DNA of 64,000 nucleotides from Eledone cirrhosa (Eukaryota), in the NCBI GenBank assembly GCA_964016885.1, contig OZ024754.1, positions 44,392,001 through 44,456,000 on the forward strand, read 5' to 3'. The stretch's first letter is position 1. Each line of letters opens with the position of its first letter. Shown here one piece after another: positions 57,995 to 61,830 of this stretch. The position numbers and the translations under genes are program-made. The notes under the pieces were generated by a model. That model had not been told where the DNA came from, did no database searches, and saw nothing but the letters and a program-made list of their open reading frames with translations.

Positions 57995-58099
57995 CGTTGG
58001 ATATCCCTCTTCCCATTCGAAGAAGGTAGATCCCTCATCTGGGACGCCAGAATTTGTGAAACGTACTCCGCCTCCAGCTTAGTCGCTTCAGCCACAAAC
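57995..58099 (+). mobile_element. CRE-like RLE fragment, broken at the (CATA)n tract
   Basis: ISLFPFEEGRSLIWDARICETYSASSLVASATN ends in the SATN that begins the 50930 fragment. Confidence 0.62.
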
Positions 58100-58107
58100 A
58101 TACTCAC

Positions 58108-58142
<35 letters not shown>

Positions 58143-58250
58143 TACATACATACGTACATACATACATACATACATACATACATACATACATACATACATA
58201 CATACATACATACATACATACATACATACATACATACATACATTTATACA

Positions 58251-58365
58251 TATTTGCAAAACATTCTTGCGATTCAAGGGATTACTATTTCTTTTCTTTT
58301 ACAACCTTGCCACCAGGAAGGTGGCCGGTCAAAAAAATATACTCGAAATGAAGAGAAAGAGATAA
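58251..58365 (+). mobile_element. Family B RLE LINE 3' fragment (short)
   Basis: Shares 3' end with 30116-30357; in (CATA)n. Confidence 0.78.
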
Positions 58366-58378
58366 CATACATACATAC

Positions 58379-58543
58379 AAAGAGCGCAGCTCCCTAATTC
58401 ATAGTCTACAAATGGCTGCGATAGCTGGCACCTTCAAAATTTGCAAAACATTCTTGCGATTCAAGGGATGACAATTTATTTTCTTTTACAACCTTGCCAC
58501 CAGGAAGGTGGCCGGTGAAAAATGTACTCGAAATTAAGAGAGA
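58379..58543 (+). mobile_element. Family B RLE LINE 3' fragment
   Basis: [30 protein letters not shown] plus 3'UTR; in (CATA)n. Confidence 0.8.
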
Positions 58544-58576
58544 TACATACGTACATACATACATAGATACATACAA

Positions 58577-58607
<31 letters not shown>

Positions 58608-58667
58608 TACATACATACATACATACATACATACATACATACATACATACATACATACATACATACA

Positions 58668-59275
58668 TGGTGGCTGCCAACTCGTTTTCGAGTACGGCCA
58701 CTACTTTATATCCATGTAGGAGAACCCCTACCGATGCGCTGAACGAGTGTGACTTTTTAGTCCAGCCAGCGACTTGAAAACTCTGGTACAAACACTACAC
58801 TTGTGACAATTATTGACACATAGAGCTGGGCCCATGGTACCATGTGACGACAAGTGCAGAGAGATCTCCAGATATAAAGCAATGCCTGTGCCGTGAAGCT
58901 TTTATAGTGAGCAAAGGCACTGCACAAAGCCAGTCCCACTCTCTTAACCAAGATGATATTTACCAAAAAGAAGAACAAGTCAACATCATTGGATACCATC
59001 AGGGTTGCAGGTGTTATATCAGAGTTTTCCTTCTCTTAGAATTCTGCCTTGACAAAGGCTAAGGGGTCATCTCTCCCAGTGATTTTGGATGGCCATTGAC
59101 TCTTAAGAGCTCCTTTGCCCTTCGACAGGTTTTGTTTTTAGTCCTGCAGGATGTCCAAAGTCACCCTCCTCACCAAGAAACCTTGGTGGGGTTGCCAGTT
59201 TAGTCGCCAACGACCCGACCATGAGACAGGTTGTACTGGGATACATGTTACCAGTAGCACCAAGTGGTGACCTGA
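58668..59275 (-). mobile_element. Non-autonomous bipartite RTE-derived element, copy 3
   Basis: Reverse complement of copies 1 and 2 with the same termini, inside (CATA)n. Confidence 0.8.
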
Positions 59276-59311
59276 CATACATACATACATACATACATAC
59301 ATACATACATA

Positions 59312-61830
59312 AGTGAGGGTACCCTTGAGACTGTGATAGGAAAACTCCAAGATAAGAAAACACCAGGAAGAGACATGATTGTCGGCTACTGGTACAAAAA
59401 ACTAATATTCTATCGGAGGTATCTTACTGACCTCTACCAACAAGTTCTTAAGGGAGATACACTTATACCAGAATGGTTGACATTAGCACAAACGTTACTG
59501 GTCCCCAAGAACAAAGACACCCACTTGGCAAAAAACTACCGACCCATTGCATACCAGAACCTGATGTATAAGATGTATACAGCCTGCCTGAACCTATTCC
59601 TCCAAGATCACTGTGAAAATAATAACATCATCACAGATGAACAAGCAGCTGGAAAGAAGAGGGTTTGGGGATGTGCTGAACAACTCCTAATCTACAAAAC
59701 TGCGATGTCGGAGGTGCGACAACTTAGGAGGAATATGACTACAGTCTGGCTGGACTACAGGAAAGCTTTCGATTCTGTTCCCTACTCTTGGATGATAGAA
59801 ACCCTCCAACTTGCTAAAGTCCCAGACATTATTGTCAGAGCCATAGAGAGGCTGTCTTCTTCTTGGGCTACTATCCTAAGGTTAAAGACAGATAGGGAGG
59901 ACTCTATTTTCACTGATAAAATAAAATATTGCAGGGGTATATTTCAGGGGGACAGTCTCTCTGTGATATTGTTCATCTTGTCATTAAACCCCTTGTCCTT
60001 TTTGCTCAAGAAATGCGAGGGATACATCATTGGCTCACAGGAGGACAGAAATACGAACCTAACCCATAACTTCTTTGTGGACGATCTGAAACTCTATGCC
60101 AAGAACATGGATGGGATGAAGAAAAATCTTGACCTGGTTACAACGTTCTCAAAGGATATAGGAATGGAGTTTGGCCAAGATAAATGCTCATACATGACTG
60201 TAAAGCGAGGAAAAACAACAACCCAATCTAGCAACATTGTCATCAATGGTCTAACTGTTTCACCGATATCTGATGAGGAGTGCTACAGATACCTGGGGAT
60301 AGATGAGAACATATCCTATAATGGTATCTGTAATAAAGAACGCGTAACCAGGGAATACTACACCCGATTAAGAAAGATCTGGTCATCGGAACTCTCTGCG
60401 CAAAACAAAACAGTGGCTCACAATGTATTTGCTGTGCCTGTCCTAACACCAACGTTTGGAATACTCAATTGGACGATAGACGAAATCCGAGCAGTTGATG
60501 TTGGAACTCGAAAAATACTGAACAACACCGGAAACTTCCACATCAACAGTGACATAGACCGCCTTTACTTGAAACGTAAGCAGGGAGGCAGAGGCCTAAC
60601 ATCAGTCCAAACAACATTTGAATGTCGCATCATATCTCTCCGACAACATCTACGAACCTCGAAGCGTAGGAGCCCGCTTCTCGAGCAAGTCTATCTGCAT
60701 GAAACAGATAAGATCATGAGAGTTGGGAAAGAACTCCTTGAGAGATATTCCCTGTGTGATAATCAGCAGTATCGCAGTGAATCCATGGATGAAAAACTGC
60801 ATGCCTATCAGCAAAAAAATCATGCATGGATATGTTGCCAGGAAGCTCCAGAGTGAGAGTAATATAGATAAGGAAAGTAGTCTATCTTGGACCAACAACC
60901 GCTATATTGGCTCCCACTTTGAAGGATACGCTTTTGCAATCCAAGAACAGGAGATTAGTACAAAATACCTGATTCACAAAAGAGATAGGGATGCAGGCAA
61001 AACACCTAGATGTGATAACAAGTGCAGACTCTGCAGAACTAACATCGAGGATATCACCCATGTCATCAGCAGCTGCCCAAAGATGTCATCGCTGTACTAT
61101 CTACCTATGAGGCATGATGTAGTGGCCAAAACACTGTTCAATGCAGTTCGTAAAAAAGATAGCCCCGATAATAAACACATTAAAAGCTACAACAATGTGG
61201 AAGACATCTATGTACATAATATGAAAGAGTACTGGTGGAATGTTCCAGTAAAAACCCCAATAAAATGCAGGCATAACAGACCAGATATTATGATATGGGA
61301 CAGGGAGAAGAAAACATGCACAGTAGTGGAAATTAGCTGCCCAGCGGATGCCAATATTAGTGAAAAGGAGAATATTTATGCAGAACTGATGAGAAATCTG
61401 CAGATACTCCACCCTGATTACACCTTCAGATTTATGCCTGTGATTATTGGGGCACTGGGATATGTTAGTAACTGCCTCAATACAAATCTTGAGAAGCTAG
61501 GCTTCACAGGAACAGAAAGAACACAACTAGTTATGAAACTACAAGTACAATCCATTAATGGAACAGTAAAAATATGTAAAACATTCCAAAAAAGTTGCAT
61601 CTAATAACTGCATATACACATGTACAGATACAAAGCATATACACATGCACACATACAACTCAAAATATACACATCCACATACAATAACATCCATATCTAC
61701 ACATGCATGCATACATACATATCTACCTAGTTGATGTTGTGTAAATTCCAATGAGAGAGTCTTGTGTCTATGTTAGAAACCGACTCTCTCTCTATTGGTA
61801 AAACTTTGTGAAATTATAAAACCAGAAGAA
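59312..61830 (+). mobile_element. 5'-truncated non-LTR retrotransposon with RT and C-terminal restriction-like endonuclease (R4/Dong-like, family A); frameshifted
   Basis: ORFs 59333-60856 and 60723-61604 carry RT motifs (NYRPI, WLDYRKAFDSV, GIFQGDSLS, FFVDDLK, YRYLG), CCHC knuckle CRLC..H..SSC, RHD, and PD..(D/E) nuclease RPDI...VEISCP. (CATA)n on both flanks. Confidence 0.92.
59333..61604 (+). pseudogene. Disrupted RT-RLE polyprotein of the LINE (frameshift near 60770-60850)
   Basis: Two overlapping frames together give RT, zinc knuckle and RLE; begins inside the RT N-terminal region (KKTPGRD). Confidence 0.85.

Follow-up and report, generated by a model that had tools for sequence, protein, structure and literature searches.

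Within the window, by which we mean the whole 64,000-nt stretch of Eledone cirrhosa DNA analysed here, copies of three retroelement families lie one beside another in tracts of a single tetranucleotide, (CATA)n on one strand and (TGTA)n on the other. How do such clusters arise: did the families insert into repeats that were already there, did one of them build the repeats that the others then entered, or is the association only the residue of random insertion and survival? Families A and B are LINEs with a restriction-like endonuclease (RLE), and the third, R, is a short RTE-derived element.

Three clusters in the window

There are seven insertions of these families in the window: three of R (at 24616, 30565 and 58669), three of B (30116, 58252 and 58377) and one of A (59312). 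As the first-pass annotation had it, all seven are flanked by the tetramer on both sides, the 3' side of A consisting of 10 perfect nucleotides followed by degenerate repeat, and in all seven the strands are as it described them, the repeat reading CATA along A and B and TGTA along R. The perfect tetramer runs of at least five units in the window (13/13) all fall inside the three clusters.

The order that had been read in the cluster at 58 kb is borne out. It begins with an internal fragment of an old CRE-like element, from the endonuclease region (58005..58099, + strand; ~88-92% match to other copies), which is interrupted by a (CATA)n/(CA)n tract (58100..58251, +). Then come a 5'-truncated B 3' end of 114 bp (58252..58365, +; 95.6% to B positions 4111-4224) and, after 11-14 nt of CATA, a second 5'-truncated B 3' end of ~165 bp (58377..58541, +; 95.8% to B positions 4049-4215). 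A (CATA)n tract (58542..58668, +) separates this copy from a full-length, 608-bp R (58669..59276, - strand; 98.5% to the copy at 30565), and a 36-nt (CATA)9 tract (59275..59310, +) lies between the head of R and the truncated head of A. The A copy (59312..61830, +; RVT_1 E=7.9e-24; 96.4% to the full-length copy L103) is 5'-truncated, retaining 2.5 of 4.1 kb, and broken: its RT, CCHC finger and PD..D endonuclease are divided over two open frames (59276-60856 and 60720-61604). A short, degenerate CATA/CA tract follows at its 3' side (61831..61870, +).

At 30 kb, a B 3' end (30116..30359, -) is followed by a (TGTA)n tract between the head of B and that of R (30357..30564, +), a full-length and very young R (30565..31172, +), of which several copies elsewhere are 100% or 99.8% identical, and another (TGTA)n tract 3' of R (31173..31557, +). 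On contig C1 alone, at least 40 copies are 100% identical to this B over 243 bp, and B is therefore very young. The third cluster holds an R copy (24616..25220, +; 96.9%) in (TGTA)n tracts at 24551-24615 and 25221-25372. The 30-kb and 58-kb blocks had been thought to have assembled independently, and this conclusion holds because the arrangement of B and R is head to head in the 30-kb block and tail to tail in the 58-kb one, and because the B copies differ in age: that at 30 kb is 100% identical to a young copy, those at 58 kb only 95.6-95.8%. These differences, together with a self-BLAST in which matches between both blocks are confined to the elements and tracts, rule out a segmental duplication as their common source.

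The CRE-like piece was considered as a fourth member of the community and rejected: in 19/19 other fetched copies (L232 read in reverse) the element runs on without a CATA tract. It is a bystander, cut by the tract. A Pfam search of the fragment gave no match; the motif RPDG..L.P..GRSL.WD.T..DT, found in copy L230 of this element, is one that we take to indicate CRE.

Families A and B and their (CATA)n sites

Full-length A measures ~4.1 kb (5/10 extended copies reach a defined 5' end), and full-length B ~4.2 kb, reached in 2/10 extended copies. One B copy has an uninterrupted frame of 1174 aa (P0001) that matches RVT_1 and zf-RVT, with CCHC at 985 and RPD..E..K at 1063. The architecture of both families is a single ORF with an RT, then a CCHC finger, then a PD..D restriction-like endonuclease, and a profile of 42 relatives matches the R2 proteins in PDB from the RT to the C-terminus (E 1e-69). 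The N-terminal C2H2-like zinc finger pattern is absent from B residues 1-400. The N-terminus of A matches that of B (E 9e-13), a motif W..E.N..L..Y / LW..HP / L..Q is conserved there in most of the 42 aligned relatives, and a low-confidence single-sequence model (pLDDT 45) shows three helices. No Myb family stood among the best 25 of the 43 Pfam families for this region, and the Atlas matches were hypothetical-protein clusters only; a diverged Myb/SANT domain has been reported in R4/Dong elements at the place where the conserved, putatively helical motif of A and B sits (PMC7998251). From the RT to the end, A and B are 53% identical, and they are not sisters in a 39-row tree built with 37 chosen, otherwise unnamed relatives; the sister of B in it is a protein named from Argonauta (support 100/99). 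By architecture and microsatellite insertion, then, A and B resemble the R4/Dong LINEs. The target of Dong proper, (TAA)n, is not theirs, which is (CATA)n.

Flanks were scored for two repeat units, (unit)2, within 20 nt of the junction, read on the strand of the element. Among directly found copies, that is, those in the best 40 matches per genome search (the window copy of A excluded and 5' ends past the locus edge uncounted), (CATA)2 stands at the 3' end of 26/29 A and 30/30 B copies and at the 5' end of 14/17 and 19/19, and TGTA at none of these flanks. A random 20-mer, by comparison, holds (CATA)2 0.87% of the time. In the pooled and deduplicated set, which includes neighbours, the counts are 57/62 (3') and 47/57 (5') for A and 47/47 and 38/43 for B, or 104/109 and 85/100 for both families, so that CATA is absent from the 5' flank in 10/57 A and 5/43 B copies (15/100 together). 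The controls gave 0/25 (RTE-C) and 0/122 (a SINE) at the 3' end. An evenly spaced sample of 100 stretches of 10 kb (1 Mb, from contigs C1-C9, C11 and C28) showed a CATA-class 3' flank in 10/11 of the 3'-intact A/B copies. The strand rule seen in the window likewise holds genome-wide, A and B lying on the CATA strand in 94/95 copies. Measured against background and controls, these flanks support the earlier suggestion that the RLE LINEs are microsatellite-specific: A and B sit nearly only inside (CATA)n, and their occupancy of it, far beyond chance, is confirmed as a genome-wide feature.

Could this association have come about without any targeting, through random insertion followed by survival in repeat-rich, weakly selected regions, or through microsatellites that grew around the elements later? 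The genome is indeed very microsatellite-rich, and a passive accumulation has been proposed for Waldo-A/B of Drosophila (PMC3812793). However, copies that are 99.5-100% identical already have both repeat flanks, the 3' junction keeps a fixed register (CATA comes next in 42/44 B copies and in 37/53 A copies with 12 unreadable ends), the strand is fixed, and control families at the same loci show nothing of the kind. Register, strand and controls in practice refute random insertion, which we regard as hardly credible.

Element R and the proposed seeding of tracts by RTE tails

Element R is 608 bp long and non-coding. Over its last ~125 nt it is similar to the finger and terminus of RTE-Z, an older RTE that we take to be of the BovB type: positions 483-534 and 577-606 match RTE-Z at 75-83%, a remnant of a C2H2-like finger can be read in the 3' part, and the terminal motif is that of an RTE-BovB-like LINE. 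Since R shares this 3' end with an RTE LINE, is truncated at its 5' end in 54/107 copies and has a target duplication (a flank duplication of at least 8 nt in 70/107 copies, against 34%, maximum 46%, over 1000 permutations), it can be classed as an RTE-derived, non-autonomous retroposon. As for an RNA-gene head (tRNA, 7SL or 5S), no Rfam match reached the gathering score, the best matches being to flanking repeats. R has short relatives, which we have named R2-R4 in this analysis. A search for an active partner of R with the finger peptide returned R copies only from the genome and no match from the protein database; searches with PF20049 and with a BovB-type query led to RTE-C, which has just the 5' 275 nt in common with R, and to the old RTE-Z, respectively. 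Six fetched "long-frame" matches were rejected as partners, being copies of one composite repeat.

The insertion sites of R are of a broader kind. It lies within an alternating purine-pyrimidine tract on 111/117 3' sides and 102/110 5' sides, and the strand rule proposed for the RTE derivatives is upheld: of the 104 copies that show a bias, 100 have R on the TG-rich strand and 4 on the CA-rich strand (107 copies scored). Among 29 directly found, mostly young copies, 15 have (TGTA)2 on neither side; of 15 copies in the evenly spaced sample, 14 have it at the 3' side. Because (AT)n is several times commoner than ATGT tracts, R still prefers ATGT per available base, though its range is broader than the tetramer. 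The view that one common target is shared thus stands as far as A, B and R do form clusters in (CATA)n/(TGTA)n, and fails in that R is also found in (AT)n and that the CRE-like piece is not a member.

A natural chimera suggests which part of R is responsible. RTE-C is an unrelated RTE with a (CTGAGT)n tail, one subfamily of which starts with the first 275 nt of R, and the junction is spanned by 24 of the best 40 matches. Judged by eye on 12 readable 5' flanks (10 fetched, one of them unreadable, plus L201, L202 and L207), the chimeric copies lie in alternating tracts in 3/12 cases and in unique DNA in 9/12, several of the latter with a clear duplication, against 102/110 in tracts for R (p=4e-7). 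The R 5' end joined to an RTE-C 3' end therefore loses tract targeting, so that targeting follows the 3' terminus of R or the protein that reads it. It is the RTE 3' end, and not the 5' end, that goes with the microsatellite.

The first-pass annotation had put forward a self-reinforcing niche, in which RTE tails seed and extend the (TGTA)n tracts that RLE elements target afterwards. In Lepidoptera, RTE tails are reported to have given rise to microsatellites (PMC2887409), and some of our own data point the same way: older R copies are richer in ATGT, 24/54 tracts of at least 20 nt in the sample adjoin an R-family element, and the old autonomous relative RTE-Z has the repeat at 22/27 of its 3' flanks and at 7/21 of its 5' flanks, as a tail would give (its copies are ~80-87% alike, hence old, and their 5' ends are uncertain and may be eroded). 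For R itself, however, the predictions of constancy, independence, length and tail preference all failed. The tail is not constant, the 3' flank starting with ATGT in 64/107 copies and with ATAT in 39/107; where the 5' flank is pure AT (seven copies), the 3' flank never opens with ATGT, and the TGTA contents of the two flanks are correlated (rho 0.57). The 3' flank of R thus mirrors its own 5' flank, and R brings no fixed tail. Nor is the 3' tract the longer one (median 87 at the 5' side and 76 at the 3' side, n=51, p=0.78), and the RLEs show no preference for R tails, A and B adjoining an R-family tail in 30/103 cases and a head in 28/92 (p=0.88). Add to this the 15/29 copies mentioned above and the many long tracts that no library element adjoins, and the niche in its original form, with RTE tails building the RLE target, is left unsupported; we consider it improbable. 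A weaker form of tail seeding is possible for the older autonomous RTE family.

The first bases of the R 3' flank change with age: ATAT starts occur in 17/31 of the youngest copies and in 13/46 and 9/30 of the older ones, a trend that may reflect either a shift of target or tract conversion after insertion. In three R copies (L052, L103 and L163) the 5' flank is unique DNA and only the 3' flank is repeat. Every insertion duplicates a few repeat units.

Probable repeated insertion into scarce tracts

The reading that we prefer, with a probability of roughly 70%, is that A and B are specific to (CATA)n and R to (AT)n/(ATGT)n on the opposite strand, and that the clusters come from repeated insertion into the same scarce, pre-existing tracts. 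In this genome of 3.0 Gb, such tracts make up 0.37% of bases. A, B and R occupy 8.9, 2.1 and 7.7 kb of the 1-Mb sample, together ~1.9%. Scaled up to the genome, the small copy counts of this sample give, as a very rough figure, 25,000 copies of A, 10,000 of B and 50,000 of R. Of the longer tetramer tracts, a third to three fifths adjoin A, B or R (31/97 strict, 32/54 loose); among those of at least 80 nt, 12 are solo, with no library element, and 8 abut one. De novo clustering of the tract neighbours collapsed into one cluster. The long tracts free of library elements are counted in favour of shared, pre-existing targets. Counted against them are the 3' excess of repeat at RTE-Z, the (TGTA)2 at 14/15 sampled R copies together with the fall of ATAT starts with age, the three R copies with a unique 5' flank, and the A and B copies whose 5' flank has no CATA.

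By analogy with R2, the protein of A and B would attach to the repeat and nick the TATG strand, where it would prime reverse transcription, with B perhaps needing ~50 nt of repeat upstream. In the case of R, a protein of RTE-BovB type would recognise the shared 3' terminus, nick the CATA strand and prime at the AT step, leaving a short target duplication. The A/B protein and the R partner would then nick opposite strands, possibly at the same TpA step, junctions being ambiguous by one base. Each insertion would split one tract into two usable ones, so that scarce tracts collect repeated insertions and clusters could grow without any family making its target.

An assembly artefact is unlikely, the same R flanks being seen in raw reads: in three other public runs, perhaps not from independent individuals, R is abundant and (TATG)n loose ends occur at its 3' end and at a truncation point. 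Aligning reduced-representation reads and short contigs to a B locus showed no empty site and gave mostly loose ends of low agreement.

Passive sharing of tracts leaves one observation unexplained, namely the excess of repeat on the 5' side of B. At least 50 nt of in-register CATA lie upstream of 30/32 young B copies, where a uniform cut would predict 18.4 (both exceptions can be put down to an insert of 15 nt or to a younger B), and 16 copies have at most 30 nt of CATA downstream. R has no comparable upstream bias (22/44). The excess reflects either a binding requirement or an extension of the tract by B. If the latter, each insertion would leave the 5' junction with ~45 nt of (CATA)n added or re-copied, and B would in this way build its own niche, the niche then being the work of an RLE and not of an RTE. 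A tract-length simulation slightly favours extension, since the per-base extension model (123-310) brackets the observed median total of 130 nt and the per-base requirement model (195-349) does not; the result is unstable, however, as both models fall short when run per tract and a handful of very long tracts dominates the sample of 151. Against extension, imperfections of the host pattern reach the 5' junction in L073, L075, L099, L093 and L084, which argues that no pure repeat was added there, and A shows no upstream/downstream asymmetry (p=0.69). The first subunit of R2, furthermore, is known to bind DNA upstream of the place where insertion occurs (PMC4838377), which fits a requirement instead. 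We therefore regard self-extension by B as rather doubtful. It is equally tentative, and on balance unlikely, that B is a chief source of the long tetranucleotide microsatellites in this genome, with two RLE lineages and one RTE lineage making use of them afterwards, from opposite strands and at a shared TpA step.

The siting of these elements in repeats has practical consequences too. Insertions buried in repeats are likely to be missed by short-read callers, and a report of low Dong activity in octopus (PMC9115989) may merit a re-test with long reads. Tetramer markers beside A, B or R may amplify from many sites, and B lends itself to tests of how a simple repeat is recognised by an RLE protein.

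Comparison with known systems

Microsatellite-specific retrotransposons as such are known already, as are RTE tails that act as sources of microsatellites (PMC2887409); besides those discussed below, Togen on TG and some HERO families have been described (PMC4640811). The nearest likeness to A and B is the Dong/R4 clade (Dong of Bombyx, DongAg, the snail DongBg and the ostracod Dong), whose published descriptions agree with them in the single ORF with RT, CCHC and restriction-like endonuclease, in having no N-terminal zinc finger and in microsatellite insertion, and report a diverged Myb/SANT domain where A and B have their conserved, putatively helical motif (PMC7998251, PMC3812793). The reported Dong target, however, is (TAA)n in most insects, molluscs and cnidarians, whereas that of A and B is (CATA)n. 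Here, moreover, two families that are 53% identical and not sisters share the target, at about ten thousand copies or more each by extrapolation from 1 Mb. Waldo (WaldoAg1/2, WaldoFs1) is reported to insert into ACAY, the same class of repeat (ACAT/ACAC) as that of A and B, but belongs to the APE-type R1 clade (PMC3812793); as A and B use a restriction-like endonuclease, the common target would be convergent.

R resembles the short, RTE-related retroposons whose 3' ends are microsatellite-like: it has its 3' terminus in common with an RTE LINE and shows a target duplication. It differs from them in having no fixed tail, in that nearly all its copies lie inside alternating purine-pyrimidine tracts, and in having no RNA-gene head, its 5' 275 nt also heading a subfamily of an unrelated RTE. 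Its 3' end appears to steer site choice, as has been proposed (PMC6007223).

In octopus, Dong-R4 and RTE-BovB elements are reported to be abundant and recently active (PMC13282606, PMC8967140, PMC10294476, PMC9115989), a likeness by type of repeat. The accessible text of these repeat papers describes neither a target sequence nor nesting (the words "target" and "nested" occur 0 times in that of PMC13282606, and "target site" 0 times in that of PMC9115989). The literature that we searched yielded no (CATA)n-specific Dong and no such sharing of a target, and Repbase entries, repeat-library notes or supplements may already state the target. What would be new here is (CATA)n as a changed target, compared with the (TAA)n of Dong, in two very abundant families of the Dong/R4 group, of which one is young and keeps its frame intact, and the sharing of its tracts.

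Relatives of R and of family A

R, the 608-bp non-autonomous RTE-derived element of (AT)n/(ATGT)n tracts, is accompanied by three other short families, R2, R3 and R4 (L024, L120:3768-4296 and L138:7168-7704). These have the 5' ~400 nt in common with R at 65-85%, together with the terminal motif, and ATGT/AT tracts house them as well. With respect to A, one of the R4/Dong-like RLE LINE families inserted in (CATA)n, more diverged 3' ends (71-74% to A) occur at L036:2055-2628 and L046:223-573. Since (CATA)n again lies directly 3' of both, their sequences suggest additional A-like RLE subfamilies with this common target. 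Among the 30 longest CATA/TGTA tracts of the 1-Mb sample (100 evenly spaced 10-kb stretches; L111-L150 and L241-L300), 13 are 73-82 nt long, near the commonest length of the tract upstream of the other RLE family, B.

A multi-kilobase composite repeat, of which six ~95% identical copies lie on different contigs (L331-L336), contains an R2 element and a nested fragment of RTE-Z, an old autonomous RTE-BovB-like relative of R. Some element clusters therefore appear to have multiplied passively, copied within another mobile or duplicated unit.

Other repeats in the window

Two long minisatellite arrays, of ~7 kb (32580-39573) and ~3.2 kb (41883-45156), match themselves at intervals of ~40 and ~76 nt. 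An (ACCGC)298 array of 99% purity occupies 13404-14895. The SINE-like repeat at 17884-18072, which recurs at numerous further sites and is very abundant (140 matches per Mb), showed no microsatellite preference; it was one of the control families for the flank tests.

RTE-C copies headed by R sequence

The first 275 nt of R are also the 5' start of one subfamily of RTE-C (L201:871-4310; L207; L337-L354), an otherwise unrelated RTE LINE with a (CTGAGT)n tail; the RTE-C copies L212, L214 and L216 have a different 5' end. The R/RTE-C junction is spanned by 24 of the best 40 matches. The R-headed RTE-C apparently arose when a LINE and a short retroposon exchanged 5' UTRs. Three RTE-C copies (L207, L343 and L355) are 5'-inverted, the pattern expected from twin priming.
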